Below, in pieces: positions 2,204 to 54,963 of a DNA stretch of 64,000 nucleotides. The DNA comes from an uncultured Actinomycetes bacterium. Lineage in GTDB: Bacteria > Actinomycetota > Thermoleophilia > UBA2241. The translations under genes and the position numbers were made by a program. The stretch is from positions 276,886 to 340,885 of the forward strand of contig CAVPVX010000011.1 in the NCBI GenBank assembly GCA_963709345.1. Reading direction: 5' to 3'. The notes under the pieces were generated by a model that searched no databases, was not told the origin of the DNA, and saw nothing but the letters and a program-made list of their open reading frames with translations. The stretch's first letter is position 1; each line of letters opens with the position of its first letter.

Positions 2204-2553
2204 CGGAAGTCGCTTTCGTCGTCTGACCAGGGAGGCCGGTCACGCAACGGCTACCTCAGGATAGTATCAGCAGAGGTCAGATTCGCTGGGCCGCGTCGTC
2301 GTCGATCTCATGGAGGCGCGCGGGTTCGACGGGGTGACCCTGCGGCACGTCGCGGGTGTCTCGCAGTCGACAGTCCGCCGGTGCTTCGACGCCGAGGGGC
2401 GTGTCACCCCATGGGACGAGCATGACGTGCCCATCGGCGCTCCCGCACGGGTATTCGTGCAGAATCCCGGCTAGGATAGCGTCCCGCGCTGGTCGCCGAT
2501 CCCGGCGCGGTGTGCACGGCGACACCACCGGCCGACACGTCGGAAGGGCGTTC

Positions 2554-3759
2554 ATGAACGATGCGATCCCTTACTCCCCAGGCGCGCCGGCGGCGGACCG
2601 TGATGATCCGGCCACGGACCTGCAACGCGCGATGGACCGCTGGTTCTTTCGTCGCGGGCTGCCGCAGTTCGCCCTCGACCACAGTTCCACCACGGCCATC
2701 TGGACGAGGGCGTCGCCGTTCCTCTTCGTCAGCTTCCTCTTCCTCGTCGTCACGAGCGCCGCCGATGTCCGCAGCGTCGCGGGCGGCGTGGCCGTCGCCG
2801 TCGCCGCCGGGCTGTTCCTGGTCGCCTTTGGAGTCGTCAATCTGCGCGGGGGGCGACCGTTCCATGCGCTGCCGCGGCGCGTCGGCTGGGGCGTGCTCGC
2901 TGCCTACGTCGTCGTGCCCACACTCCTCAGTGGCTTCGCCTCACTGCGGTGGCTCCCACCCCTGGTGACCGTGGGGGTGGCCGTCGGGTTCCTCGCGCTC
3001 GCCTGGGTCGTCACCTGGGCAGCGCTCATCCCGCTCGTTGGCTGGGCCGTCCGGTGGACCACGCGGCAATTCGGCAGCGTCGTGCCGCTCGTCACCCGTG
3101 CCCTGCCACTGCTTCTGCTCTTCGTCACCATCATCTACCTCACCACGGAGGTCTGGCAGGTCGCCGGCACGCTGCCCGCCCGGTGGCTGTGGCTCACCAT
3201 CGGACTCTTCATCCTTCTCGGCCTCTGCGTCATCGCCACGCGCCTTCCGCAGGGGATCCACAGCCTGGAGGCCACTGGCGACAGAGCCTCCATCGAGAGC
3301 GCCTGTGCCGGCACGCCGCTGGCCCCCGTCGTCGCCGGCATCGCCGACCTCGGCGAGCCGCGGCCGCTGACCCGTCTGCAGCGTCTCAACATCGGCGTCG
3401 TCATGACGATGGCCCAGGTGGTGCAGGTGGCTCTGTTCGCCGTGGTCGTGTGGCTCTTCTTCCTGCTCTTCGGGACCATCGCCGTCTCCATCCCCGTCCA
3501 GATGGAGTGGCTGGGCGGCATCAACCCCGTGGACGTGCTGTGGCACCTGACGCCCGATCGCGGCCTCACCCGCGAGTCCGTGCGCGTGGCGACGTTCCTC
3601 GCCGGCTTCTCGGCGTTCTACGTCACTGTCTACAGCGCTTCGGACGCGACCTACCACGAGCACTTCTACGCGGACATCGGTCGCGAGCTGGAGCGTGCCA
3701 TGGCGGTCCGCCAGGCCTACGTGGCCCACAGCGTCGAACGCGGTCCGCAGACGCGCTGA
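2554..3759 (+). CDS. Polytopic integral membrane protein of unknown function
   Basis: ORF 2356..3759(+). The most plausible start is ATG at 2554 (MNDAIPYSP...). There are about 8 predicted TM segments and codon third positions are GC-rich. I recognised no family. Confidence 0.5.
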   Translation: MNDAIPYSPGAPAADRDDPATDLQRAMDRWFFRRGLPQFALDHSSTTAIWTRASPFLFVSFLFLVVTSAADVRSVAGGVAVAVAAGLFLVAFGVVNLRGGRPFHALPRRVGWGVLAAYVVVPTLLSGFASLRWLPPLVTVGVAVGFLALAWVVTWAALIPLVGWAVRWTTRQFGSVVPLVTRALPLLLLFVTIIYLTTEVWQVAGTLPARWLWLTIGLFILLGLCVIATRLPQGIHSLEATGDRASIESACAGTPLAPVVAGIADLGEPRPLTRLQRLNIGVVMTMAQVVQVALFAVVVWLFFLLFGTIAVSIPVQMEWLGGINPVDVLWHLTPDRGLTRESVRVATFLAGFSAFYVTVYSASDATYHEHFYADIGRELERAMAVRQAYVAHSVERGPQTR

Positions 3760-18712: not shown

Positions 18713-19206
18713 GCGGTCCTCCCGACAACGCCGCCGCGGCGCCGCAGGCGCGGCCGACCTGGGACGAGTACTTCCTGCAGCTCGCCAGGCAGGCCGCGAC
18801 CCGCTCGACCTGCCTGCGTCGCCGGGTGGGCGCCGTGCTGGTGCGCGACAGGCGCATCCTCGCGACCGGCTACAACGGCGCCCCGCGCGGCGTCTCCCAC
18901 TGTCTGGACGTCGGGTGTCTGCGTGACGAGCTCGGCATCCCCTCGGGGGAGCGTCACGAGCTCTGCCGCGCCATCCACGCCGAGCAGAACGCCGTCATCC
19001 AGGCGGCCATCCACGGCGTGGCCATCGAGGGTGCGACTCTGTACTGCACGCACCACCCGTGCATCCTCTGCGCCAAGATCCTCATCAACTGCGGCGTGCG
19101 CGAGATCCACTATCTCGAGGGCTACCCCGATGAGCTCTCCCGAGAGATGCTCAAGGAAGCCGAGGTCGTGCTCCACAAGGAGGAACTGCCATCGGCGGCC
19201 CACTGA
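18709..19206 (+). CDS. Deoxycytidylate (dCMP) deaminase, ComEB-like
   Basis: GTG at 18709 overlaps the glyA stop (GTGA). It carries the Zn-binding motifs HAEQNAV and [11 protein letters not shown]. Confidence 0.8.
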
Positions 19207-19256
19207 GCCTCTCGAGCCCGCTGCGCACGGCCATCCTCGGCTTTCTCATCGCCGCC

Positions 19257-20321
19257 TTGATCGTCTACGTGCTCACACCGCTGATGGGGCGTCTGGCGCA
19301 CCGCACCGGCGCCGTGGACACGCCCAGCGACGACCGGCGCATGCACGTGCTCGCGACGCCCCTGCTGGGCGGCCTCGGCATGTACCTCGGGTGGATGATC
19401 CCGGTCATGCTGCTGGTCGAGGTCGACCGCGCCGTGTGGGGGATCATAGGCGGTGCGACGATCGTCGTCGCCGTGGGCCTGTTCGACGATCTCTACGAGC
19501 TGGAGCCGATCGTCAAGTTCATCGGCCAGCTGCTCGCCATCGGCGTGGCCATCTACTTCGACACGAGCGTGACGCGCCTCGGGGTGCCCTTCACCGACGT
19601 CATGTGGCACCTGCCCGTCCTGTTGTCGATCTTCGTCACCGTGTTCTGGATGGCGATGATCATCAACATGGTGAACTTCATCGACGGCCTCGACGGGCTG
19701 GCCGCCGGCGTGTGCGGCATCTCCGCGCTCACGTTCTCCGTCATCTCTCTGCTCACCGGCTTCCCAGCCATGGGGGTGCTCTCCGCCGTGCTGGCCGGCG
19801 CGACCTTCGCCTTCCTGCGCTTCAACTTCCACCCGGCCAGCATCTTCATGGGCGATGCCGGCTCGATGCTGCTGGGGTTCGTGCTCGCCTGCATCAGCGT
19901 CCAGAGTGTGATGAAGGGCACTGCGGCCGTCGCGCTGGTGCTGCCGCTGCTCGTGCTCGGCGTCCCCTTCGTGGATCTCTTCCTCATCGTCTGGCGGCGC
20001 TGGCGCCGCGGGGTGCCGTTCTACTCGCCCGGCCAAGACCACGTGCACCACGATCTCGTGCTCGTGCACGGCTTCTCGCAGCGCAAGAGCGTGCTCCTGC
20101 TGTACGGGTGGTGCAGCTGCCTCAGCTGCCTCGCCATCGCCGCTCAGCAGCGCTACACGCCGGCGATCGTGTTCTTCGGCGTCGCGGCGGTCGTCTCGAC
20201 CACCTACATGGCCCGTCTGCTCAGCCGCTTCCGGTCGCGCCGCGAGGGCCTTCCCGACCCGCTTGCTCCAGGTGTCGGCCGCAACCCGTCCAAGGGTGGG
20301 AATGATGACCAGGCCGCCTAG
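19257..20321 (+). CDS. wecA: GT4 family UDP-GlcNAc:undecaprenyl-phosphate GlcNAc-1-phosphate transferase (WecA/Rfe-like); N-terminus probably extends to CTG 19203
   Basis: MraY/WecA signatures are present: ...DDLYEL...NMVNFIDGLDGLAAG...NFHPASIFMGDAGS.... The first in-frame canonical start is TTG 19257. The in-frame region from 19203 ([21 protein letters not shown]) encodes the expected first TM helix. Confidence 0.8.
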   Translation: MIVYVLTPLMGRLAHRTGAVDTPSDDRRMHVLATPLLGGLGMYLGWMIPVMLLVEVDRAVWGIIGGATIVVAVGLFDDLYELEPIVKFIGQLLAIGVAIYFDTSVTRLGVPFTDVMWHLPVLLSIFVTVFWMAMIINMVNFIDGLDGLAAGVCGISALTFSVISLLTGFPAMGVLSAVLAGATFAFLRFNFHPASIFMGDAGSMLLGFVLACISVQSVMKGTAAVALVLPLLVLGVPFVDLFLIVWRRWRRGVPFYSPGQDHVHHDLVLVHGFSQRKSVLLLYGWCSCLSCLAIAAQQRYTPAIVFFGVAAVVSTTYMARLLSRFRSRREGLPDPLAPGVGRNPSKGGNDDQAA

Positions 20322-27650: not shown

Positions 27651-28994
27651 ATGGACGGCTCCAGCGAACACGAGCAGCACCTCGAGGTGCATGGCGGCCG
27701 GCGTCTGGATGGCGAGGTCGTCCTCTCGGGGGCGAAGAACTCCGCCCTCAAACTCCTCGCCGCCAGCCTGCTCACCGCCGAACCCTGCACGATCCGCCGC
27801 GTTCCCCGCATCACGGATGTAGACACCATGGTGACGATGCTTCGCGCCCTGGGGGCGGAGGTCGACGGTGAGGCCGATGTGCTGCGCGTGCGGCCGGGAC
27901 GGGATCTCAACGGGTGCGCGCCGTACGAGCTCGTCCGCACCATGCGCGCCAGCATCATCGTCATGGGACCGCTCGTGGCGCGCCTCGGCGAGGCCACGAT
28001 CGCCATGCCCGGCGGCTGCAACATCGGGCCGCGGCGCATCGACTTCCACATCCGCGGCCTCGAGAAGCTTGGGGCGGTGATCGAGATGGAGCATGGCTTC
28101 ATCAAGGTGCACAGCCGGCAACTCAAGGGGGCGGTCGTACCTCTCGACTATCCGAGCGTCGGCGCCACGGAGAACCTCCTCATGGCGGCGACCGCCGCCG
28201 AGGGCGAGACGGTCATCGAGAATGCGGCACGAGAGCCGGAGATCATCGACCTCTGCGAGTTCCTGATCGGTATGGGGGCGGTCATCGAGGGCGCCGGTAC
28301 CAGCACCATCCACATCGCGGGCGGCTCGGAGCTGCACGGGGTAGACCACGAGGTGATCGCCGATCGCATCGAGGCCGGGACGTATCTTCTGATGGGCGTC
28401 GCCACCGGCGGCGCCGTCACGACGGTCGGCCTCGACCCTGCGCATCTCGAGCTCTTTCTCGCCAAGCTTCGCGCCATGGGCGTCACCGTCGAGGAGGGCG
28501 ACCGGCGCATCACGGTGAGCCGCGAGGGCGCTCTCGCTCCGATCGACGTCTCTACGCTTCCGCACCCCGGCTTTGCCACCGATCTGCAGGCGCAGATGAT
28601 GGCCGTGCTGTCGCTCGCCGAAGGGACGTCGATCATCACCGAGAACGTCTTCGAGAACCGCTTCGTCGTGGTCGACGAGCTCAACCGTCTGGGGGCGGGT
28701 ATCGAGACCAGCGGGCACCACGCCGTGGTCGCCGGGCCCCGCGCCCTCACCGGCACCGTGGTCGAGGCGCCCGACCTCCGGGGCGGCGCCGCACTGGTCA
28801 CGGCCGGCCTCGCTGCGGAGGGCGTGACGGAGGTGCGCGGCGTGCAGCACATCGACAGAGGCTACGAAGATCTCGCCGGCAAGCTCACCGCTCTCGGCGC
28901 CGAGGTCTCGCGCTCGCTGCCGGCGCGCCGAACCGGGGAGGAGATGCGCGCGTCTCTCCGGTCGTGCGATGATGAGGCGGCGCGTAGCGCCTGA
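27651..28994 (+). CDS. murA: UDP-N-acetylglucosamine 1-carboxyvinyltransferase
   Basis: 447 aa; ...LSGAKNSALKLLAASLL... with an EPSP-synthase fold. Confidence 0.92.
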   Translation: MDGSSEHEQHLEVHGGRRLDGEVVLSGAKNSALKLLAASLLTAEPCTIRRVPRITDVDTMVTMLRALGAEVDGEADVLRVRPGRDLNGCAPYELVRTMRASIIVMGPLVARLGEATIAMPGGCNIGPRRIDFHIRGLEKLGAVIEMEHGFIKVHSRQLKGAVVPLDYPSVGATENLLMAATAAEGETVIENAAREPEIIDLCEFLIGMGAVIEGAGTSTIHIAGGSELHGVDHEVIADRIEAGTYLLMGVATGGAVTTVGLDPAHLELFLAKLRAMGVTVEEGDRRITVSREGALAPIDVSTLPHPGFATDLQAQMMAVLSLAEGTSIITENVFENRFVVVDELNRLGAGIETSGHHAVVAGPRALTGTVVEAPDLRGGAALVTAGLAAEGVTEVRGVQHIDRGYEDLAGKLTALGAEVSRSLPARRTGEEMRASLRSCDDEAARSA

Positions 28995-29015: not shown

Positions 29016-31067
29016 ATGGCCGAATACCGCGTCTACAAGGTCGGGGAAGAAGAGCACGTTCGCGACAACGGCGCGGCGTCGCGAATGCCCGCGTCCGAAC
29101 GCGCCGCGAGCCGTGGCCGCCGCCGTTCCGGCGCCGACTCTCGTGATGTCGTCTCGCGGCGGTGGTGGTTGTGGGCGCTGGTGGCCGCCGCCGTCCTCGC
29201 CGTCGCCCTCCTGTACTGGTTCTTCGGACGCGACGCCGTCGGCAATTCCATTGCGGCGCTCGACCTTGCACGGCTCTCGGGCAAGGTGCCCGGCTGGGCC
29301 GTGATCGGCGCGCCTGTGGTTGCCGTGACCGTCGTCGGCCTGGTCACGGTCTACCTGGCCTTCGGCCGGCATCTCGTCCTCAAGCTCATCGCCTTGGCCG
29401 TCGTGGTCCTGGCGCTGGCGACTCCCGGCCTGGCCGTCGGCTACGCCGAGGGGACGCTCGACGTGGTCAGCACCAAGGACGCTGAAGTCACCAGGGACGT
29501 CGCGGCCGCCGAGGAGGAGCTTGAGATCCCGCTCCCCAACAAGCCGATGAACATCCTGCTCATCGGCTCGGACAAGTCGGACGTGCCCGGTGACCCCGGC
29601 CGCTCGGACACGCAGATGCTCGTGCGCATCGACCCCGAGACCAAGAGCATCTCCATGCTGTCGGTGCCACGTGACTTGCGCGTGTACATCCCGGATCACG
29701 GTTACGACAAGATGAACACGGCCTACTCCTACGGCGGGCCGAAGCTCGCGGTGAAGACCTTCAAGGAACTCACCGGCCTGCCCATCAACCACTTTGTCGA
29801 GATCAACTTCGCCGGCTTCTGGCACGTGGTCAACATCCTCGGCGGCGTCTACATCCCAGTCGATCACACCTACTTCGTGCCGGCGAGCGCCGACTACAAG
29901 TCGATCAACCTGAAGGCCGGCTACCAGCTGGTCGGCGGCAAGCAGTCGCTGAACTACGTGCGCTATCGCCACGATCAGCGTGGCGACTTCACCCGGATGC
30001 AGCGCCAGCAGCTCTTCCTTCGGGAGCTGCAGCGGCAGTCCGGGCGCTGGAGCAGCGACTGGGGCAAGGTGATAAAGCTGATCAAGGCCATCACCGGCGA
30101 GACCAAGTCGGACCTCGACTCGCTGAGGAAGCTCGAGCCGCTGGTGAATCTCTCGTTCGAGGTGGACACCTCGAAGGTGTATCAGGTGCACCTCGAGGGC
30201 GCGACTCCGATGATCGACGGCATCTCCTACGTCACGGCCACCGAAGGAGAGGTCGCCGAGGCGGTGCACGGATTCACCGACCCGAAGCAGGCGCCCCTGT
30301 CGACCAAGGGCCTCAAGATCTCCAAGAAGATGTATGGGGTCGACATCTACAACGGCAGCGGCATCCCCGGTCTGGCGACATCGGCCGCTTCGCAGCTGAG
30401 CGCGCAGGGCTACAAGGCCGAGGCTCAGGCCGACGCCCCGGAGTTCCCGGGCACGGCGACCGTCGTCTACGCGCCCAAGAGCCTGGAGACGCAGGCCAGG
30501 ATCATCGGCGAGATGCTGTGGCCGTCCGACGTGCGCATCGTCGAGCGCGCGTTCGGCGTCGACGACGGCATCACCGTCTTCGTCGCCTCCTCCTTCGACG
30601 GCACCATCGAAGCCCCGGAGGAAGAGGTGCAAGCGCAGCAGACGTTGCAGCGCGGCCAGAAGTACGACTGGGAGTCGTGGCGGGCGCTGGACGCGAAGAG
30701 CCCGCTGCGCCTCGAGGCGCCGACCGCCTGGTCACCCGGCCTCGTCTACGATGAGTTCCGCTCGTACGCGGTCGAGAAGACCGACGGCAAACGTGTCGCC
30801 GCTGCCATCGCCGTGATCAGGACGCCGATGTCGGGGTTCGCCGGTATACAAGCGATGCGCTGGCTCGACCCGCCGGCGATCGAGAACCCCACGTCCACGC
30901 GGACGATCGCCGGGACCAAGTACATGCTCTTCTACCAGGGCGCGAACCTCCACATGGTCGCGTGGACGCGGCGCAGCACGCTCTACTGGGTGATCAACAC
31001 CCTGGACAACCAGCTGTCCAACGACGTGATGATGGGGCTTGCGACCTCGTTCAAGCCCGTGAAGTGA
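29016..31067 (+). CDS. LCP (LytR-CpsA-Psr) family cell-wall glycopolymer transferase with C-terminal LytR_C and an extra domain
   Basis: ATG at 29016 after a GGAGGAG ribosome-binding site. An N-terminal TM anchor is followed by the canonical LCP core: NILLIGSDKSD...RSDTQMLVRIDP...SVPRDLRVYIPDHGYDKMNTAYSYGGP...INHFVEINFAGF.... A LytR_C-like segment (VDIYNGSGIPGLATSAASQL) follows. Confidence 0.85.
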   Translation: MAEYRVYKVGEEEHVRDNGAASRMPASERAASRGRRRSGADSRDVVSRRWWLWALVAAAVLAVALLYWFFGRDAVGNSIAALDLARLSGKVPGWAVIGAPVVAVTVVGLVTVYLAFGRHLVLKLIALAVVVLALATPGLAVGYAEGTLDVVSTKDAEVTRDVAAAEEELEIPLPNKPMNILLIGSDKSDVPGDPGRSDTQMLVRIDPETKSISMLSVPRDLRVYIPDHGYDKMNTAYSYGGPKLAVKTFKELTGLPINHFVEINFAGFWHVVNILGGVYIPVDHTYFVPASADYKSINLKAGYQLVGGKQSLNYVRYRHDQRGDFTRMQRQQLFLRELQRQSGRWSSDWGKVIKLIKAITGETKSDLDSLRKLEPLVNLSFEVDTSKVYQVHLEGATPMIDGISYVTATEGEVAEAVHGFTDPKQAPLSTKGLKISKKMYGVDIYNGSGIPGLATSAASQLSAQGYKAEAQADAPEFPGTATVVYAPKSLETQARIIGEMLWPSDVRIVERAFGVDDGITVFVASSFDGTIEAPEEEVQAQQTLQRGQKYDWESWRALDAKSPLRLEAPTAWSPGLVYDEFRSYAVEKTDGKRVAAAIAVIRTPMSGFAGIQAMRWLDPPAIENPTSTRTIAGTKYMLFYQGANLHMVAWTRRSTLYWVINTLDNQLSNDVMMGLATSFKPVK

Positions 31068-32725
31068 GCTTCCTGCGCGCGGTGATGCGGCGGCTCGACC
31101 CCTGGGCCGCACTCCTGCTCGGCGTCCTGGTCGCCTTGGGCGTCGTGATCCTGCTGGCAACGCCTGGGCCGTGGCATCGCGTCGTCGGCCCCGCGCCGGC
31201 CGTAACCCTCAAGCCGCCGCCGCCCGATGACGTCGCGGTGTTCGTGCTGGGAGGACGTGGCGGCGCCTGCTCAGGTGTCGTGTGGCTGCACATCGACGCC
31301 GACGAGTTGTCGCTCACCGCCGTCGTGATCGCCGGACACGTCACGGGCTCTGTGCCCGGCGCCGGCTTCGCCCCGCTTGCGGACGTCGTCGATACGGCGG
31401 GTCCGCGTGCCGCCGCCGCCGCGCTCAGCGAGGAGCTCGACGTACAGATGGACGCGTGGGTGACGCTCGACCGCAGGGCGCTGGCACAGGCGGTCGATCC
31501 CATGTTCCCGATGGACGACGTACGCGCCGCGCGCGGCCGGTACCGCCTGGCGTTCTCCGCCTGGAAGGGCAAGGGAGGAGTGGAGGAATCGTGGCGCACC
31601 CAGTACGAGACGCTGCGCGAGGCGCTCCCGCAGGTCGCCTTTCACGAGCTCAACGTCGTTGCGTTCTCGAATTACGTGCTCGGCTTCGGCTTCGTGCGCA
31701 GCGACCTTACGCTTCAAGACGCGACCTCCCTGGCCGACACGCTGCGTGAGATCGACCCCGGCCTCGTCGAGGTGCGCACGGCGGCGGTCGTCGTCGAGAC
31801 CTGCCGCGGCGCGGAGATGTGGCACATGGACGCCAGCCGTCTGGAGACGCTGCGCCTGTCGCTTGCTCTTGGTCTCGTTCCTCCCGACGTTGGGCCACGT
31901 ATCGTCCGCCGGAGGCGCGCTGCTCGCGTTCTGGTCGTCGCTCCCATGCCGGCCGCCGAGGCGGATGTCTACATCCGGCAGGTGCGCCGGAGCCTGCGTC
32001 GCTCCGCCGGCTCGCCCATCGAAGTCCGGTCGGTCGCGGGCGTCACCGCCGATCTCGCCCTTCGTGCCGCCCGCGCCCTCGACCGGCGCGCTCCACTGGC
32101 CGTCCTCGTCGCGCCGCCGGACGCGGCCGACACCGATGCCGCGGAGATCGTCGCAGAGGTCTACGCGATGTTGAGGAGGCGAGGGCAGGAAGCGGTGGCG
32201 GCTGGGCCGCTGCCCGGACCTGCTGCGTCGTCGGAGGTGAGCGAGCCGCCCACTTCCGGCCTGCGGGTCGTGGTCGCCGGTGGCGGGCTGCCCGTGTCCT
32301 GGGCGCCGGACGCGGCGGAGGACGGCGTCACGAGTCCGCGGAGTGAAGCCATCGTCGGCGCCGCAGCCGCCAACGTCCAGACCCTCGTGCGCGCCTGCTG
32401 GCCGGGCGTCCTTGCGCCGGAGCTCGCGGCGACGCGACTCGGCTTCCCTTTCGTCGCCGCCCGTCACACCGGCGTCGGGGTCGTGTCGGCGACGGAGGAT
32501 GCGGCGGCGCCCGTCATGTCCCGGCTTCGGCTCTGGGGTTTCGTGGTCGGGCGGCTTGTGCTGAGCCCGACGGACTGGACGCCACCCGGCGCGGGAGCGG
32601 CGCTCTACTATCGCTCGTCCTCAAGAATGGCCGCTCGGGTCCTCGCCGACGGGCTGGGACTGGGACCGGCGGCGGTCATCAGGGATGACGATGCGCCGCG
32701 GCCCGTAGTTCTCGTCGTCGAGTGA
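31064..32725 (+). CDS. Membrane-anchored protein with a degenerate LCP-like domain (hypothetical)
   Basis: GTG at 31064 overlaps the LCP stop (GTGA). An N-terminal TM helix is followed by VFVLGGRGG...VVWLHIDADELSLTAVVIAGHVTG...DAWVTLDRRAL.... This is weakly LCP-like but lacks the conserved Arg/Asp motifs. Confidence 0.5.
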   Translation: MSFLRAVMRRLDPWAALLLGVLVALGVVILLATPGPWHRVVGPAPAVTLKPPPPDDVAVFVLGGRGGACSGVVWLHIDADELSLTAVVIAGHVTGSVPGAGFAPLADVVDTAGPRAAAAALSEELDVQMDAWVTLDRRALAQAVDPMFPMDDVRAARGRYRLAFSAWKGKGGVEESWRTQYETLREALPQVAFHELNVVAFSNYVLGFGFVRSDLTLQDATSLADTLREIDPGLVEVRTAAVVVETCRGAEMWHMDASRLETLRLSLALGLVPPDVGPRIVRRRRAARVLVVAPMPAAEADVYIRQVRRSLRRSAGSPIEVRSVAGVTADLALRAARALDRRAPLAVLVAPPDAADTDAAEIVAEVYAMLRRRGQEAVAAGPLPGPAASSEVSEPPTSGLRVVVAGGGLPVSWAPDAAEDGVTSPRSEAIVGAAAANVQTLVRACWPGVLAPELAATRLGFPFVAARHTGVGVVSATEDAAAPVMSRLRLWGFVVGRLVLSPTDWTPPGAGAALYYRSSSRMAARVLADGLGLGPAAVIRDDDAPRPVVLVVE

Positions 32726-32734
32726 ACGTCTCGC

Positions 32735-32785
32735 AAGACGACGGCGGCGCCTTCCTCTGCGGGAAGGCGCCGTCGTGGCGTACAC
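32735..32785. terminator. Bidirectional hairpin between convergent genes
   Basis: A near-perfect inverted repeat, ACGACGGCGGCGCCTTCC ... GGAAGGCGCCGTCGT, lies between the stop at 32725(+) and the stop at 32798(-). Confidence 0.5.
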
Positions 32786-32797
32786 GATGGATCTCAG

Positions 32798-33166
32798 TTA
32801 GGCGTGACTGCGGCGCAGAAGAACTCCGCCGCCGATGAGACCGACGCCTGCGGCGAGGATGAGGAGCACCTCGCTGCCGGTGAAGGCGAGCTGCCCACCC
32901 TGGGTCCCAGGATCCTGCAAGCTCGCCAAGTAGTCTTCGAGGACGCCCCTCAGGTCGGTGTACTGCGCGTAGATCGGGTTGTTCTCGATGAAGTCCAGCG
33001 CTGCCTGGATCTCGGCGGCCGACCAGTTGCCGTCGATGGTGCCGTCCTTGGCATCTTCGATGATCGCGTCGATCACCGACTGCGGCACGGCCGCCTGCGC
33101 GACCACGGCGAACGCGAGCACGAGCAGGAGGACAACTGCGATTACGGTCAGAAGCTTGACCTTCAT
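32798..33166 (-). CDS. Small secreted, sortase-anchored (LAXTG) surface protein
   Basis: ATG at 33166 gives MKVKLLTVIAVVLLLVLAFAVVAQA, a signal peptide. The C-terminus has ...QLAFTG, then a hydrophobic TM stretch, then RRSHA. This is the classic cell-wall sorting signal with the actinobacterial LAXTG motif. It is embedded in a longer spurious ORF, 32798..33913. Confidence 0.65.
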   Translation of the reverse strand: MKVKLLTVIAVVLLLVLAFAVVAQAAVPQSVIDAIIEDAKDGTIDGNWSAAEIQAALDFIENNPIYAQYTDLRGVLEDYLASLQDPGTQGGQLAFTGSEVLLILAAGVGLIGGGVLLRRSHA

Positions 33167-33315
33167 GTCTTCACCCCCCCTCACAACGTCTTTCCGGCGG
33201 TTACCGGTGGAATACACCATACTTGTACCACTTGTCGTCGCACATGACCATACTCCCGCCGGCTCAGAAGCGCGGGTGTGCTGTCCGCGGCACGTCTTCG
33301 ATATGACGATGACAG

Positions 33316-33321
33316 TATAAT
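33316..33321 (+). promoter_or_regulatory. Perfect TATAAT -10 box 7 nt upstream of ATG 33329 (candidate leaderless start of the O-antigen ligase gene)
   Basis: TATAAT at 33316-33321; ATG at 33329. Confidence 0.35.
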
Positions 33322-33328
33322 GCCGCCG

Positions 33329-35122
33329 ATGGACCCCCTGACAAACACTCGCCCTGTTGGCCGAGTGATGCGGCGGCCGCAGAACGCCATCCCTTACGCG
33401 GTCGCCGTAGCGGCTGTGGCGGCCTTCTCCTTCTTGTCCGGGGGGTACATCCTGGGGCGGAGCACCCCCATCGCGGTCGCCGTTCTCCTGCTGGCGGCTG
33501 TATGGGTGTGGTTTCTCCGCCGCCGCCGGCGTCCCTCCTGGCCGTTTGTCGCGGCTCTCGTCGTCTTCGGCCTCTACGCCCTGTGGACCGGGGCCTCCGT
33601 GCTCTGGTCGCTCGCCCCGGACCTGACCTGGGCGGCGTTCAACCTCACCGCGTTCTACCTCGCCGTCCTCGCGGTGCTCGGCCTCACGTCGGTGCGTGTT
33701 CTGCAGCTGCGTACGGCGGGCTACGGGTACTTCGCCGTCGCCGTGGCCGTCGGCGTCTATGCGTTTCTCGGCAAGGCGCTGCCCGAGGTCGTGACGCACG
33801 CGCACCGGTACGCGCGTCTCGACAGCCCGGTGGGCTACTGGAACGTACTCGCGCTGATGATGGTCATGGGGCTCTGCGTGGGCCTTTCTCTCGCGGGGGA
33901 CCGGCGGGCGCACCCCGCCTGGCGCGCGCTCGCCGCCGCCGCCGCGGTTCCCATGTGCATCACGTTCTACTACTCCTTCTCGCGTGGCGGGTGGATCGCT
34001 CTGGGCGTCGCGCTCCTGCTCTACTTCGCGTTCACGACCAGCCGGCTCGCCAGCCTGAGCAGCCTGGTCGCGATCGTCACTCCCGTCGCCGTCGTGCTGT
34101 GGCGCCTGCGTGGTCTGAGCACGCTGTCAACGGCCACGACCGACGATGCCCTGCGCGCTCTTGAGGGGGGCGTGCTCCTCCGCTGGTCGCTCGCGGCGAT
34201 ACTCGTCGCGAGCGGCGTCCAAGTCGCGATCGCCCTCCTCCATCGCGCCGTGCCCTGGCCGCGCTGGCTGCGCTTCGCCGCGGGCGCTACGATCGTGGTC
34301 GTGCTGGTGGGCGGGGCGATCGGGGGTTCGTGGCGATTCCTCGAGCCGCGCGGCGGCACCGCCTGGATCGGCGAGCGCGTGACCGTCCTTCTCGAGGGGA
34401 GCGACGAGACGTCGAGCAATGAGGGGGCGGGGCGCCTCATCTCTCTCAACACGGGGCGGCCGGAGCTCTGGCGTGAGGCGATGGACCAGTGGCGGCACGC
34501 GCGCGTGAGTGGGTCGGGCGCCGGCACCTTCCCCTTCACGCACTACCGCTTCAGGGAGACCGGAGGCGTCACCAAGCACGCGCACAGCCAGTGGTTCAAC
34601 GTGCTCGGCGAGCTGGGTACGGTGGGGCTTGCGCTGTTCGTCGCGGCCATGGCGCTGTGCGTCGCCGCGATGGTCGGCAACCCCTTCTCGTGCCGGCGCG
34701 ACCCGCTGCACCCGCTCCTCGTGGCGATGCAGGCGGGCGTGATCGCCTTCTTCGTGCACGTCTCCTGGGATTGGGACTGGGACATGGCCGCGATCGGGAC
34801 GCTCGTGTTCGTCTTCGTGGCGGCGTCGGCTTCGTACCGCACGGCCCGTGCTGCCGACGAGCGCGATCGGGAGCCGCGGCGAGCGACGTCGTCAGGTGCG
34901 CGGGTCGCTGCCGCGCCCGCTTCGGACGAGCCGGGGCCCGACGAGCCGGATGCGCGCGAGGCGGCCGCGTTCGCGGCCACCGTCGTCGTCACGAGCGCGA
35001 ACGCCGTCGTGTCTGCCGGCGGCGATACGATCGCACGCGACCACACGACTGCCGGCGACCGATGTGACCGCGGGCGACCACGTGACCGCGGACGGTCGCG
35101 ACGCAGCCGACGGCCCGGATGA
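33329..35122 (+). CDS. O-antigen ligase (Wzy_C/WaaL) family polytopic membrane protein; probably continuous with the downstream TPR ORF via a frameshift
   Basis: About 11 TM helices. It carries ...FYYSFSRGGWIALG... and ...HAHSQWFNVLGELGTVG..., the hallmarks of O-antigen ligase. The acidic low-complexity tail ends at 35122. Confidence 0.75.
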   Translation: MDPLTNTRPVGRVMRRPQNAIPYAVAVAAVAAFSFLSGGYILGRSTPIAVAVLLLAAVWVWFLRRRRRPSWPFVAALVVFGLYALWTGASVLWSLAPDLTWAAFNLTAFYLAVLAVLGLTSVRVLQLRTAGYGYFAVAVAVGVYAFLGKALPEVVTHAHRYARLDSPVGYWNVLALMMVMGLCVGLSLAGDRRAHPAWRALAAAAAVPMCITFYYSFSRGGWIALGVALLLYFAFTTSRLASLSSLVAIVTPVAVVLWRLRGLSTLSTATTDDALRALEGGVLLRWSLAAILVASGVQVAIALLHRAVPWPRWLRFAAGATIVVVLVGGAIGGSWRFLEPRGGTAWIGERVTVLLEGSDETSSNEGAGRLISLNTGRPELWREAMDQWRHARVSGSGAGTFPFTHYRFRETGGVTKHAHSQWFNVLGELGTVGLALFVAAMALCVAAMVGNPFSCRRDPLHPLLVAMQAGVIAFFVHVSWDWDWDMAAIGTLVFVFVAASASYRTARAADERDREPRRATSSGARVAAAPASDEPGPDEPDAREAAAFAATVVVTSANAVVSAGGDTIARDHTTAGDRCDRGRPRDRGRSRRSRRPG

Positions 35123-49523: not shown

Positions 49524-52500
49524 CTACCTCAGAATCGGGCCTGCCTCGAGCAGCCGGCCGCACTCGTTCGCCGGCAGGGGTCTGCTGTAGAGGAACCCCT
49601 GGATGGCGTCGCAACTCTCGTCTCGCAGGACGCCGAGCTCGCCGGGCGTCTCGACCCCTTCCGCCACGACGGTGAGCCGGAGCCGGTGGCCGAGAGTGAT
49701 GACTGACGCGGCCACCGCGGCATGCTCGGGGACGTTGGACAGGTCGTGGATGAACGAGCGGTCGATCTTGACCGTGGAGATGGGCAGGCGGACGAGGTGG
49801 CTGAGGGACGAGTAGCCCGTGCCGAAGTCGTCGAGTGCGATGCGCACGGCCATCGCGCGGAGGGCGCCGAGGACCTGGGCGGTGTGGCGCGGATCGCGCA
49901 TCGCCGCCGTCTCGGTGATCTCCAGCTCGAGTGAGTGAGCGTCGAACCGCGTGCTGCGCAATGCCCTGCGAACGGTGTCGACAAGGCTCTCGTCGTGCAG
50001 CTGGCGCGCGCTGATGTTGACGCCCATGCGGAGCGGACGCCCGAGCTGACGTTGCCACGCGCGTCCCTGGCGGCATGCCTCAATGAGGACCCAGGCGCCG
50101 ATCGGCAGGAGGACGCCGCACTCTTCCGCCGATGGAATGAAGTCCAGCGGCGCGATGACCCCGCGCTCGGGATGCCGCCAGCGGAGCAGCGCCTCGACGC
50201 TTGTGATCTGACCGCTCGCTGCGTCGACCACCGGCTGGTACTCAAGAAAGAACTGGCCGGCTTCGAGCGCGTGATGCAGTTCGCCCTCGAGCGCGAGGTG
50301 GTCGGCGCGCTCGGCATTCATGCCGACGTGGAAGAACCGCCAGCAGTGGCCGCCCGCGTCCGATGCCATCCGCAGGGCGGACGCAGCGTTGCGCAACAGT
50401 TCGTCGGCCGTGACGCCGTCTGCCGGGTAAACGGCGACGCCGAGGCTCACAGTCAGGTAGAGCTCGTGCTGCCCGACGTGGATGGGTTGTCCCACCGCTG
50501 CGACGAGCTTGCCCAGCGCGGTGCTCGCCTCGTTCGGCCCTGCTGCTCCGGGCAGCAGGAGCGCATACCTGCCCGCGCCGAAGTGCGCCAGCGTGTCCTC
50601 GGCGCGTCCAGCGCGCTGCAAGCGGCGCCCGACTTCGCCGAGCAGATCGTCGGTCGCGTCGTGGCCGAGCGACGAGACGAGGGTGTCGAAACGGTCGAGC
50701 TGCAGAGTGGCGACCGCGAACGACAGGCGCTTGCGCCCCGCGTGCTTGAGCGCCTGACGGGAACGGTCCTCAAGCAGGGTGCGGTTGGCGAGCCCGGTCA
50801 CGGGGTCGTGGAGCGACAGGCTCTGCAGCCGCTCGTCGGCGGTCTTCTGCTCGGTGCGGTCGACGAGCACGGCGGTGCCGCCGATGACGGCGCCATCGGC
50901 GTCGTGGAGCGGCACGGCCTTGAGCGTGATCCACAGTTCCCGGTCGCCGGCCGTGGTCCGGTACGGGCCTTCATAGATGCCCTCGCGGCCTTCGAGCGCC
51001 GCCTCCAGTGCCGGGAGCGGCCGGAGGTCGGCGATGGTCGTGCGGATGCTCGCCCCGGCGTAGTGCCGGGGCGAGCATCCGGCGGCGGCGTCAAAGGCCG
51101 CATTGCCCTCCAGGAACGTGAGCTCCCTGTCGTACCTGAACACGCCTACCGGGAGCCCGTCCACGAGCGTCCGATATCGCTGCTCGGATTCGCGCAGCGC
51201 GGATTCGGCTCGATGGCGATCGGTCACGTCGAGCAGGATGCCCTCCTGGGCCAGCGGAGAGCCGTCCGCGTCGCGGATCAGCGCGAACCGATCCCACACC
51301 CAGCGCTCCTCGCCGTTCGCGCTCCGTATTCGATACTCGGCTTCGCCGCGCCCGCTCTCCAGCGAGTCGAGTGCGGAATCCTCGAGCAGGTGGATGTCCT
51401 CCGGATGGACGACCTTCTCCCACTCGAAGTCCGGCGCCATGAGTTGCTCGGGGGTATATCCCGTGAGGCTCTGGTCGCCGCCGACGATGAACTCGTCGGC
51501 CCACGGCGACCGCGTCTGGGCGCGGTACAGCCAGCCCGGTATCGTGCTCAGCAGCGACCGCAGCCGCCGCTCGGTCTCCGCCTGGGCATCCTGTGCCTCG
51601 TGCAGTCGCGTCACGTCGATGATCATGCCGACGATCTCGGCCGGTCTTCCCGCTTCGTCGGCGATGAACACGCCGCTGTCGAGTACCCAGCGCACCGCGC
51701 CGTCCCTGGTCACGATCCTGTGCTCCGTCTGGCTGCCAGGCGATCCGGCGGTGAGGTCGCGCCGCATGTCGTCGACGACGAACTGGAGGTCGTCGGGGTG
51801 GACGATCTGCTTCCACGAGACCGCGCCGCCGGTGAACTCCTCCGGGCCGTAGCCCGTCAGCGCCCGGCAGCCCTCGCTCAAGAACGTCGTGCCCCGGGGG
51901 CCTTGGATCGCGCTGCGATAGGCGGCTCCGGGCAGGCTGGCGACCAGGCCGCTCAGCATCTCCTCGCGCACGCGCAGAGCCGCCTCGGCTTCGTGAAGGT
52001 CCGTGACGTCGGTGACGAAGCCCTCGAGGTGCTGGAGATCACCCGCGTCGTCGAAGACGCCGACCCCGCGCTCCCAGACCCATTTCTCGCGCCCGTCCTT
52101 GGTGCTGATCCGGTACGTCGTGGTCCAGGGCGCCCGGGCGGCGAGGGCCTCCTGCACCGTCGACCAGATGGTCTCGGCGTCCGCGGGGTGAGGTAGATCG
52201 GCGTACGATACGGCGTCGCCGCCGATCAGCTCCTCCGGCCGGTAGCCCGTGAGCTCGGTGCAGCCGTCGCTCAGAACCATCATGGTCCAGCCCCGGTCGT
52301 TGAGACACCGGTACGCCATGCCGGGGACGTTCTCGAGCAGCGTCTTCATCGCCCGTTCGCCTTCGGCCGCCCGTGCGTCGGCGAGCCCGCGTTCGCGTTC
52401 GGCGCGACGCTGTTCCGTCACGTCGACCAGGACGGCCAGCGAGCGGATCACGCGGCCGCCGCTGTCTCGCTCGGCCGTGGCCGAGAGCAGGACGTCGACG

Positions 52501-53666
52501 CTAGCGCCGTCTCTGGCTACCATCTGATATGGGACGTCCTCGCAGGATCCCGACGCGAAGAATCCGGGAAGGACTTCCTCCTGCGCGAAGCGCCGGGACT
52601 CCTCGGTCAGAAACTCCGTCGACCGCCGCCCCAGGACTTCTTCGGCGCTGTAGCCGAGGCGTTGAAGCCAGCGATCGCTCACGCTCAGCAGACGACCCTG
52701 GGCGTCGATCGAGTGGAGCATCACCGGCGTTCTCAGATACAGGGTCCGGTACTTCTCCTCGCTCTCGCGCAGCGCCTCGCCGGCGCGCTTACCTTCGGTG
52801 ACGTCGCGCACGATGAGGAGCATCTCGCCGTTATCCCGCGGCACGTGCCGCACCTCGTCGTACCGGATGGAGGCGGGCGTGGCCCTCGTCACCTCCGCCG
52901 TCACCGGTTTGCCGGTGGCTCGCGCGAGGGCGACCGCCTGCCGGATCCTCGCTGCTGCGTCCCCGGGCAGGTCCTTCCACGGCAGGTTGCCGGGCGACGC
53001 CGCGGCCAGATGGCCGGGATCGTGCGCCGCGGCATGCCGGCCGCCGACGACCCGCGCCACCGTATCGTCGGCGTTCAGATACAGATAGGTGTCGGGCAGC
53101 GTCTCTACGATGCCCCGGACGCCTGCCGCCGCGTCTCGCACGGCGTCCTTCATCTCCTTGAGAGTGGTCAGGTCGACGATCGTGGCGACCACGGCCTCGA
53201 GGGCGCCCGCGCTGCTCGTCAGCGGCTCTACGGCCACCTGCACCCAGGTCGACGGCAGTCCGTCGTCCCACGCCAGCTCGAGCACGATGCCGTCGACAGG
53301 CTGCCCCGTGCGCACGGCGTCGAGAAGGCCGGCTGCGGCGAGGTCGGCGGGCGTTCCGTCTTCGGAGACCACGGCGCCACGCCACTCGGGGATGTCGACG
53401 GCGAGGCTGCCGACGACGCGATCGCGCGTGACTCGCAGAAGCGTCGCGGCCCGCCGGTTCAGGTCGATGATGCGGCCGGACGGGTCGCACACGACGATCG
53501 CGGCGGCGACCGCGTCGACCGTCACGGATGCGGTCGGATGCCCCGCCGGCTCCGCCGACGGGTGGTCGCGGCCCGATGAAGCAGCCGCCGCGGCCTGAGT
53601 CTCGCCCCGCGCGGCCGGCTTCCTGCTTTCCGGTGTCCCGGTCGCGTCTTTGTGCTTCCTCGTCAT
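49524..53666 (-). CDS. Multi-PAS (about 8 PAS/PAC) signalling protein with a degenerate GGDEF (GAGRY, I-site RAED retained) and an intact EAL phosphodiesterase domain
   Basis: ORF 49524..53861(-); the likely start is ATG 53666 (MTRKHKD...). It has repeated PAC boxes (..DVT.....AE..). The GGDEF-domain motif reads [13 protein letters not shown]. The EAL domain has [26 protein letters not shown] and EGVE. Confidence 0.85.
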
Positions 53667-53802
53667 CGTCCCCTCGCGGCCACCGCCCTGGCAGCAGTCT
53701 GCCCAAACGGCCGCCTCCCACGCACGTGCTCTGCACGGACGGTATCGGCGGGTGGGCATCCGGGCTGAAGCGGTTCGCGGATTCCGGTACACTACCTCGG
53801 TC

Positions 53803-54963
53803 ATGAGTACCACCGCCTCAGAAGCACTCGTCCACCTGGACTCGCTCCGCGAGCGTCTCAAGGAAGCCTCCGGGCGCCTGGGATGGCTGCGGAGCTATCT
53901 TGACCCGCCAGGGCTGACAGAGCAGATCGAGGCGCTCGAAGAGCGCATGCGCGCCCCCGGCTTCTGGGACGACCAGCAACAGGCCCCGAGGATCTCCGCC
54001 GAGTACAGCCGGGCCAAGAGGCGCCTTGCCGACTTCGCCGATCTCGAAGGCCGCTTCGCCGATCTCGAATCCACCGAGGAGCTGCTGCGTGAGGATCTGA
54101 GCGGCGACGCCGTGGACGACGAGCTCCTGCAGGAGCTCGTGAGCGGCGTCGCCGAGCTCGAGGCCGACCTGCAGCGCGGGGAAGAGCTGCGCTTCTTCAG
54201 CGGCAAGTACGACGAGGGTGGCGCGATACTCACCATCCACCCCGGCGCCGGCGGCACGGAGTCCCAGGACTGGGCCGAGATGCTGCTGCGCATGTACCTG
54301 CGCTGGTTCGAGCGCCGCGGCTTCAGCGTCGAGGTCAACGATTCGCAAGAGGGCGACGAGGCGGGCCTCAAGAGCGCCACGCTCACCGTGGAGGGCGAGA
54401 ACGTTTACGGTCTGCTGCAGTCCGAGAAGGGCGTGCACCGGCTCGTGCGCATGAGCCCGTTCGACTCGGCCAACCGGCGGCACACCAGCTTCGTCTCGGT
54501 CGATGCATCGCCGCTGGTCAGCGACGACGTCGAGGTGGAGATCGACGACGACGACCTGCGCATCGACACGTACCGGTCCAGCGGCGCCGGCGGGCAGCAC
54601 GTCAACAAGACGAGCTCCGCGATCCGCATCACGCACCTGCCCACCAACATCGTGGTGCAGTGCCAGAACGAACGCTCGCAACTGCAGAACAAGACCGTGG
54701 CGATGCACATGCTGAAGTCCAAGCTGGTGGAGCTCGAGGAGCGCCACCTGGCGGAAGAGCTGGCGCGTGAGCGCGGCGAGGTGCTCAACGTCGACTTCGG
54801 CAGCCAGATCCGCAGTTACGTGCTGCATCCCTACCAGATGGTGAAGGACCTGCGCACGGGGCACGAGGTCGGCAACACCCAAGCTGTGCTCGACGGCGAT
54901 CTCGACGGCTTCGTGCACGCGTACCTCGTGTGGCGCGCCGGCGGGAGCGAGCCGCGCAAGTAG
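53803..54963 (+). CDS. prfB: Peptide chain release factor 2 (no programmed frameshift)
   Basis: It carries the SPF motif (...MSPFDS...) and GGQ (..[11 protein letters not shown]..). The N-terminus reads ...LRSYLDPPG as one continuous frame. Confidence 0.9.

Follow-up and report, generated by a model that had tools for sequence, protein, structure and literature searches.

Teichoic acids, capsules and arabinogalactan are joined to peptidoglycan in a last, extracellular step that is catalysed by LytR-CpsA-Psr (LCP) enzymes. These enzymes are candidate drug targets, and little is understood of their positioning and regulation. In a 64,000-nt stretch of DNA from an uncultured Actinomycetes bacterium of the class Thermoleophilia (assembly GCA_963709345.1, contig CAVPVX010000011.1, positions 276,886 to 340,885; hereafter the window), a gene for such an enzyme (gene 1) overlaps a second gene (gene 2). 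A preliminary description, made from the sequence alone, had taken the product of gene 2 for a degenerate LCP-like paralogue. This raises the question whether the gene 2 protein is an LCP relative at all and, if so, what it does beside an intact enzyme. We assign a probability of roughly 55% to the reading that it is an LCP-family pseudo-enzyme, a non-catalytic partner of the adjacent gene 1 ligase. It is read in this way because it has the LCP fold without the LCP active site and is made together with gene 1. The two genes and their parts are as follows.

29016..31067, + strand: gene 1, LCP glycopolymer transferase, 683 aa (Pfam LytR_cpsA_psr and LytR_C; NCBIfam TIGR00350)
29508..30275, + strand: LCP catalytic domain of gene 1, residues ~165-420 (invariant columns in 38 orthologs)
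30339..30590, + strand: LytR_C domain of gene 1, residues ~442-525 (Pfam PF13399, E 6.5e-10)
30648..31064, + strand: extra C-terminal domain of gene 1, residues ~544-683 (RseB/MucB, LolA-like, fold)
31064..31067, + strand: GTGA overlap of the gene 2 GTG start with the gene 1 TGA stop (sequence reading)
31064..32725, + strand: gene 2, membrane-anchored protein, 553 aa, unannotated family (homolog and profile searches)
31103..31165, + strand: signal-anchor transmembrane (TM) helix of gene 2, residues 14-34 (invariant columns, hhalign, AlphaFold2 model)
31226..31903, + strand: degenerate LCP-fold domain of gene 2, residues ~55-280
31916..32464, + strand: middle region of gene 2, residues ~285-467 (flavodoxin-like alpha/beta domain, then a helical segment)
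32465..32722, + strand: probable LytR_C-like domain of gene 2, residues ~468-553 (sub-threshold Pfam, hhalign and PDB profile matches)

Gene 1 is known in kind. As described before, it directly follows murA, from which it is separated by 21 nt, and it is a textbook LCP enzyme with a LytR_C domain. Its start codon (ATG at 29016) is preceded by the Shine-Dalgarno sequence GGAGGAG, and its stop codon is the TGA at 31065-31067. The protein scores 147.7 bits against Pfam LytR_cpsA_psr (PF03816; E 3.7e-43, cut-off 24.6), 140.2 bits against TIGR00350 (E 6e-41, cut-off 62.3) and 40 bits against LytR_C. A profile of its orthologs, which carry the source name "LCP family protein", matches TagV (E 2e-42), TagU, TagT, LcpA and Cps2A among the PDB structures and also the LytR_C structure of Rv0431 (2m5y, E 1e-5). 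By inspection, a cytoplasmic N-terminus is followed by three hydrophobic segments (~49-69, 90-113 and 117-138) and then by the extracytoplasmic domains. An extra C-terminal domain had been noticed earlier and does exist, but it comprises ~140-155 aa (residues ~530-683) and not about 250. It is built from a helix, eight antiparallel strands and another helix in the manner of RseB/MucB (LolA-like fold) and has no Pfam family.

The residues essential for LCP activity have been named for Cps2A and A. oris LcpA (PMC7831098, PMC6381275). In Cps2A, D234 and D246 bind Mg and R267, R362 and R374 bind pyrophosphate, and D371 and Q378 are also among them (PMC7831098). Their equivalents in gene 1 are D186, D198, R219, R316/R318, D324, R327 and Q331, and the spacing of D186/D198/R219 is identical to that of D234/D246/R267. 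Thirteen positions are invariant among the 38 orthologs (43-75% identity), namely D186, R196, D198, R219, D220, R316, R318, D320, D324, R327, R330, Q331 and Q332. Judged by its residues, gene 1 thus codes for an LCP transferase with the full catalytic set.

The relationship of gene 2 to this enzyme is much more distant. A direct BLASTP comparison of the two proteins gives no match (best E 2.5), and a HMMER profile of the gene 2 family has a P-loop design (E 0.37) as its only match among the PDB sequences. In comparisons of structures and of profiles, however, gene 2 does resemble the LCP fold, so that the lack of structural similarity which would have refuted the preliminary description was not observed. 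With the AlphaFold2 model of the gene 2 protein as query, a Foldseek search of the PDB has LCP structures, and no others, at its first 28 ranks, with E values from 6e-8 to 4e-4, a probability of 1.0 and a target-normalised TM score of ~0.5. Profile-profile comparison by hhalign, with 29 gene 2 representatives at 29-50% identity, aligns gene 2 residues 67-244 to gene 1 residues 194-400 with a probability of 89.7% (E 1.8e-6, 177 columns), and a second run with 146 gene 2 sequences gives 85.4%. Six control comparisons of other domain pairs stay at or below 0.3%. The first run, with narrow alignments, had reached only 28.7%, so that divergent members were needed for the higher value.

A bridge between gene 2 and recognised LCP proteins is provided by a protein family from Ruthenibacterium. 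The gene 2 profile reaches one of its members, P0245, at E 6.7e-4; P0245 itself scores 22.9 bits against the Pfam LCP model, close to the cut-off of 24.6, and four of the 18 members exceed this threshold, some being named "LCP family protein". In addition, sub-threshold matches to the Pfam LCP model occur in 6 of 57 and in 3 of 29 gene 2 relatives. Structure search, profile-profile comparison and the bridging family are three independent lines that agree in register, and by them residues ~55-280 of the gene 2 protein have the LCP alpha-beta-alpha fold. The term tandem paralogue, which had been applied to the pair, is appropriate in so far as a kinship can be recognised between profiles and structures (85-90% by hhalign), but it overstates the likeness of the sequences and does not hold in the sense of a recent duplication: the relationship is an ancient one, seen between profiles.

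The strings on which the LCP resemblance had originally been based (VFVLGGRGG, WLHIDADELSLTAVVIAGHVTG and WVTLDRRAL) are present in gene 2 behind the TM helix. The hhalign alignments, which are consistent among themselves, reproduce the proposed one, with the difference that RSDT of gene 1 is paired with ACSG, one residue away from the register assumed at first; the replacement of PRD by AGH was seen as described. Family-wide residue counts were obtained from 146 members, with positions taken from the hhalign alignments. Each line gives the residue of gene 1, the residue of gene 2 in the window and the residues in the gene 2 family.

D186: R65; R in 84 and A in 31 members, also S
R196: A68; S, T or A
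S197: C69; C in 144 of 146
D198: S70; S or T
R219: G91; P in 121
D220: H92; R, E or L
R316: K168; R in 79 (54%), E in 37 (25%)
R318: K170; R in 96, L in 13, H in 10
D324 and R327: gap or S176; A, V or S
R330: T179; T in 96, R in 13, A in 12
Q331: Q180; Q in 145 of 146

The loss of Arg and Asp residues that had been read from the single protein thus extends to the whole family. None of the two Asp and three Arg residues that are needed for LCP phosphotransfer is conserved, and the only key position that has been retained is Q180. The variable beta-hairpin region of LCP proteins, which leads from the central sheet to the RxR helix, is deleted in gene 2, the corresponding gaps in the hhalign alignment comprising 12 and 6 residues. 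The gene 2 family has a conserved set of its own, which consists of C69, W74, H76, D78, G101, G113, W132, D136-R137, W167-x-G169-x-G171, Q180, FSNYVLG (201-207) and W253; several of the conserved residues fall into a part of the model with low confidence (189-217). A Cys-His-Asp triad of C69, H76 and D78 was considered and rejected, since strand geometry places these residues at opposite ends of one beta-strand (71-78 in the model).

The remainder of the gene 2 protein also resembles LCP enzymes in its arrangement. The TM helix, which the AlphaFold2 model places at 13-32, ends in the invariant juxtamembrane motif ILLATPGPW (invariant residues L31, A32, T33, P34, P36 and W37). Its counterpart in the hhalign alignment is LALATPGLAVGY, which closes the last TM segment of gene 1 (residues 26-36 aligned to 129-139). 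The flavodoxin-like domain of the middle region is modelled confidently and is followed by the helical segment; no recognisable catalytic motif was found in this region. It was also considered as an SGNH/GDSL hydrolase, a candidate that was dropped as there is no conserved catalytic Ser or His.

The last ~85 residues probably form a LytR_C-like domain, to judge from several weak sequence matches. Sub-threshold matches to Pfam LytR_C occur in 18 of 57 and in 7 of 29 gene 2 relatives (best E 1.8e-4), though not in the window protein itself. In all six members for which coordinates were read they cover the C-terminal 55-75 residues, mostly at profile positions 10-82 of 86. The hhalign comparison of the gene 2 C-terminus with LytR_C of gene 1 gives 10% (E 3e-3), and the top PDB match of the C-terminal domain profile, at E 0.21, is 2m5y. 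With its TM helix, its LCP fold and its probable LytR_C C-terminus, gene 2 thus mirrors the architecture of actinobacterial LCP proteins (TM, LCP, LytR_C), to which one inserted domain has been added.

Gene 2 belongs to a conserved family that has escaped annotation. The 553-aa product is recorded exactly as a called protein, and 283 homologs were retrieved in a protein search, all of them "hypothetical" and none with a Pfam domain. A HMMER profile scan of 1.84 billion representative proteins returned 129 relatives, almost all family members or fragments, and gene 2 matches no NCBIfam or Pfam family. In a genome scan, gene 2 was found in 73 species-level genomes with an intact reading frame and an identity that decreases from 82% to 33%. 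The carriers are all metagenome-assembled genomes (MAGs), uncultured so far, and nearly all of them belong to Thermoleophilia. Two MAG loci labelled Deltaproteobacteria (L033 and L052) carry the same block of murA, LCP gene and gene 2, with 59-71% identity to the window over the aligned segments; most likely they are mis-binned Thermoleophilia contigs.

The ratio of nonsynonymous to synonymous substitution rates (dN/dS), computed with close and with more distant relatives, is 0.24-0.38 for gene 2 and 0.20-0.34 for gene 1. Within gene 2 the constraint is strongest in the N-terminal LCP-like domain. Gene 2 evolves faster than its neighbour, with identities of 33-82% in the same genomes in which gene 1 has 42-93%. 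Because of this dN/dS and of the reading frame that is intact across the 73 genomes, gene 2 is considered a functional gene under purifying selection and not a decaying duplicate.

The gene 2 product of the window had no exact match in the contig index, and its context was taken from the locus of a 51%-identical homolog and from the genome scan. Wherever upstream sequence is available (72 of 72 loci), gene 2 is directly preceded by a gene 1 ortholog that is full-length and has the RseB-like domain, and no locus has gene 2 without gene 1. Co-conservation of the pair, which had been suggested as a check, was thus seen in every informative related genome. In all of these loci atpD and murA are found upstream of the pair, and on its downstream side nearly every locus of sufficient length has Wzy_C. 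The whole block of ~15 kb (atp genes, murA, the LCP gene, gene 2, a small gene, Wzy_C and sugar-nucleotide genes) is syntenic across Thermoleophilia.

The coupling of the two genes is conserved as well. The GTGA overlap, which had been correctly read at 31064-31067, occurs at 65 of 74 junctions, while seven have a gap of 4 nt and two look like assembly frameshifts. The loci L018 and L071 gave partial tblastn matches with a broken junction or frame and without an in-frame start at the overlap; these breaks are probably frameshift errors of long-read MAG assembly and not gene losses. In the sequence, no Shine-Dalgarno motif is evident upstream of the gene 2 GTG, which fits with termination-reinitiation coupling as the probable mode of translation of gene 2. 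The ATG at 31085 was considered as an alternative start and rejected, because conservation already sets in before it (xxLRAV) and an in-frame start at the overlap is available at the 65 junctions.

The neighbourhood of the pair has the following further features.

27651..28994, + strand: murA, UDP-GlcNAc enolpyruvyl transferase (Pfam EPSP_synthase, E 1.8e-99)
32741..32776, no strand: perfect G+C hairpin, 16 bp (RNA folding)
32798..33166, - strand: small secreted LAFTG protein, 122 aa (sequence reading, tblastn, NCBIfam)
33278..35122, + strand: Wzy_C/O-antigen-ligase-like polytopic membrane protein (Pfam Wzy_C, E 1.5e-13)

Upstream of the pair, murA and the atp operon form one same-strand run. 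A family-4 glycosyltransferase of the WecA/TagO/MraY type is encoded shortly before the atp genes (19134-20321, + strand; Pfam E 2e-41). Enzymes of this type start polyprenyl-pyrophosphate-linked linkage units, so that the atp genes are flanked by a linkage-unit-starting enzyme type on one side and by MurA and the LCP ligase on the other. A similar rfe-atp-murA order is found in mycobacteria.

Downstream, gene 2 is separated from a convergent small gene by a gap of 72 nt that contains the hairpin. The latter has a folding energy of -38.2 kcal/mol (z -3.9), and none of 200 shuffled sequences folds as well. A simple terminator scan did not call it, as it is not followed by a T run; it is probably a bidirectional terminator without U-tract that closes the atp-murA-lcp transcription unit.

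The small protein, which is recorded exactly as a called gene and is poor in Ser and Thr, consists of a signal peptide, a domain of ~70 aa, the motif LAFTG, a hydrophobic stretch and the C-terminal residues RRSHA; it reads MKVKLLTVIAVVLLLVLAFAVVAQA...LAFTGSEVLLILAAGVGLIGGGVLLRRSHA. From its sequence, the C-terminus is identified as a sorting signal for a sortase of the LAxTG type. The NCBIfam models LAVTG and LAXTG match below their cut-off (18.9 bits versus 27, E 1.2e-3). With the window included, tblastn gave 66 matches, and the 65 related loci among them have the gene at the position that it occupies here; almost all of the proteins carry L[AMS]FTG where the C-terminus is readable. By analogy with A. 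oris, the LAFTG protein may serve the LCP pair as acceptor or carrier, as A. oris LcpA glycosylates the adjacently encoded sortase substrate GspA (PMC6381275).

The statement that this block is less GC-rich than the atp genes did not hold. Gene 1 has a GC content of 0.660 (atpD 0.671) and a third-position GC content (GC3) of 0.91 (atpD 0.90), and gene 2, at 0.723, lies above the window mean of 0.695. Since the GC3 of gene 1 equals that of atpD, the lower total GC of gene 1 is a matter of amino-acid composition. A foreign origin, as might be suspected from low GC, was rejected on the same values. The window is ordinary chromosome, which apart from the gene pair codes for dnaE, his genes, serine hydroxymethyltransferase (SHMT), SecA and others. 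Elsewhere in the window there is an open reading frame of 473 aa (2338-3759, + strand) that has a coding-like composition (GC3 0.87) and no Pfam match at E <=1e-5, as well as a very large signalling protein of ~1450 aa with multiple PAS, GGDEF and EAL domains (49524-53894, - strand).

How could a protein without the LCP active site act in this setting? According to our proposal, gene 2 would code for a single-pass membrane protein that presents an extracytoplasmic LCP fold, followed by the flavodoxin-like and the LytR_C-like domain. This LCP fold would lack the Mg-binding aspartates and the pyrophosphate-binding arginines of phosphotransfer, and the protein would be co-produced with the intact gene 1 ligase via the 4-nt overlap of start and stop at the end of the atp-murA-lcp unit. 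Most likely it would serve as a non-catalytic subunit, a scaffold or a regulator of the ligase, with which it would associate in the membrane, perhaps through the LytR_C domains. It may help to position, stabilise or gate the transfer of polyprenyl-pyrophosphate-linked glycopolymers to peptidoglycan, while the neighbouring LAFTG surface protein is a less likely acceptor. The physical association of the two proteins and the non-catalytic role of gene 2 are the presumptive part of this proposal, whereas fold, residue loss, purifying selection and the pairing and coupling of the genes were observed.

Several observations weigh against this proposal. Gene 2 of the window scores only 13.1 bits against Pfam LytR_cpsA_psr (E 0.11), even though this weak match lies in the same register as the other alignments. 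The LCP-like domain is modelled with moderate confidence (pLDDT, the per-residue model confidence, mostly 45-80), residues 130-150 and 189-217 being below 50 and the helices relevant to a hydrophobic tunnel for the polyprenyl chain being of low confidence, and the assignment of LytR_C is built from matches that are all sub-threshold. A basic residue is present at positions 168 and 170 in ~55-65% of the members, and the family has conserved polar residues of its own (C69, H76, D78, D136, R137 and D256), so some binding or catalytic activity through a rebuilt site is possible. Finally, co-location and coupling indicate co-expression and not the formation of a complex.

The alternative that survives best, although we consider it unlikely, is that gene 2 is derived from an LCP protein but acts independently of gene 1. 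It would then have its own structural or regulatory role in the envelope, for example in peptidoglycan binding or division-site localisation, and the pairing would be an old operon inheritance. The LcpA protein of E. hirae is reportedly, going by the title of the paper alone, an LCP protein that is chiefly peptidoglycan-binding and located at the division site. Since synteny extends over the whole block of ~15 kb throughout the class, the neighbourhood of the two genes by itself says little about a specific partnership. However, what has been kept exceeds gene order: the overlap itself persists at 65 of 74 junctions, and at seven more the gap is 4 nt at most. Furthermore, gene 2 never occurs without gene 1 in loci with upstream sequence, and the two proteins resemble each other in the juxtamembrane motif and in the order of their domains (TM, LCP fold and, probably in gene 2, LytR_C).

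Ranked below this is the possibility, to which we attach little likelihood, that gene 2 has remained an enzyme or binds a lipid or glycan specifically. The LCP scaffold would have been re-tooled (C69, D136-R137, K/R168, K/R170, Q180, FSNYVLG) for a distinct step, such as handling of the polyprenyl-phosphate product or transfer of the glycan to another acceptor, e.g. the LAFTG protein. Invariant polar residues are indeed found in or near the former active-site loop (C69 corresponds to S197 of RSD, and Q180 to Q331), and within gene 2 selection constrains the LCP-like domain most strongly. The conserved sortase-substrate gene and the Wzy_C gene adjoin, and glycosylation of an adjacently encoded sortase substrate by an LCP enzyme has a precedent in A. 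oris (PMC6381275). Against a re-tooled site, however, stands the finding that none (0/5) of the residues needed for LCP chemistry is conserved and that many members have Glu, Leu or His at positions 168 and 170, where a basic pair is thus not obligatory. In addition, the inferred strand geometry separates C69 from H76 and D78 and leaves no catalytic dyad, and no known catalytic motif was found by Pfam or NCBIfam.

That the LCP resemblance is spurious, with gene 2 coding for a lineage-specific membrane protein of other descent and its moderately confident model looking like a widespread alpha/beta sandwich by coincidence, would agree with the 13-bit Pfam score, the modest pLDDT and the negative searches with BLASTP and with HMMER against PDB sequences, but it is very improbable and largely refuted by a template-free structure search that is specific for LCP structures, hhalign values of 85-90% with clean controls, a bridging family at the Pfam threshold, all in the same register, and the sub-threshold Pfam LCP matches in other members.

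The pseudo-enzyme partner may be extended to a more specific arrangement, which we put forward tentatively, as it is a possibility that we doubt more than we believe. In the wall-glycopolymer ligase of Thermoleophilia, one active LCP subunit and one dead LCP-fold subunit would be joined in an obligate heteromer, with the dead one used for positioning of substrate or acceptor or for regulation. The LAFTG and Wzy_C proteins would belong to the same machine, in which glycan transfer is coupled to a sortase-anchored carrier. If true, this would be the first time that a pseudo-enzyme subunit is described for the LCP family. A full-text literature search returned no paper that combines LCP with "pseudoenzyme", and the only proposed LCP accessory factors that were found are the mycobacterial LytR_C-only proteins.

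What seems to be new, on the evidence of sequences, is an LCP-fold protein without LCP active site that, throughout Thermoleophilia, accompanies an active LCP enzyme as a fixed partner, encoded downstream of it and coupled to it. The result is specific and well supported by sequence and structure, and it offers a testable idea of LCP hetero-oligomers, with the function being inferred. A dead LCP paralogue that is coupled class-wide is suited for studying what the LCP fold does beyond catalysis (binding of lipid or peptidoglycan, oligomerisation), whether LCP proteins form hetero-oligomers and what purpose LytR_C serves. A family of ~280 members without annotation has now been defined, and its N-terminal domain could be labelled "LCP-like, catalytically inactive".

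In comparison with known systems, the LCP transferases come first (Cps2A, TagT/U/V, S. aureus LcpA, A. oris LcpA and mycobacterial Lcp1). With an Arg/Asp/Mg site, these transfer glycopolymers from a polyprenyl-pyrophosphate linkage to peptidoglycan or, in the case of A. oris, to a sortase substrate (PMC7831098, PMC6381275). Gene 2 differs from them in that it lacks the Mg-binding Asp pair and the three pyrophosphate-binding Arg residues, fails the Pfam and NCBIfam LCP models, is devoid of the variable beta-hairpin region and has an inserted flavodoxin-like domain. Self-association of an LCP protein has been described for C. glutamicum, where LcpA oligomerises (PMC7831098).

The gspA-lcpA module of A. 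oris is similar in that an LCP locus lies beside the gene for a sortase-anchored surface protein, which here is the 122-aa LAFTG protein that is convergent with gene 2. However, the A. oris module has a single active LCP, a large glycoprotein and no pseudo-LCP, while the LAFTG protein is small, poor in Ser/Thr and known here from its sequence.

The bridging family of Ruthenibacterium (P0245, P0370-P0386; ~290 aa) represents a second, unrelated lineage of TM-anchored LCP-fold proteins in which RSD and PRD have been replaced. Its members have, for example, PPQ or PQQ in place of PRD. In contrast to gene 2, these proteins are single-domain, belong to Clostridia and in some cases exceed the Pfam LCP threshold. 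Degenerate LCP domains may thus be more widespread than annotated, and the Ruthenibacterium family hints at dead LCP subunits elsewhere.

The best functional analogy is provided, in our opinion, by VirR (Rv0431) and Cei (Rv2700) of M. tuberculosis, VirR being the closest precedent. Like the gene 2 protein as we read it, they are membrane-anchored, non-catalytic LCP relatives, and they have been proposed to act as scaffolds of LCP ligases via LytR_C-LytR_C contacts (PMC11832169). VirR, a LytR_C-only protein without LCP catalytic domain, binds Lcp1 and its paralogues via LytR_C (PMC11832169). VirR and Cei have no LCP domain and are neither located beside an LCP gene nor coupled to one, whereas the gene 2 protein, about four times larger than they are, still has an LCP fold, though a degenerate one, and shows translational coupling to the presumed partner.

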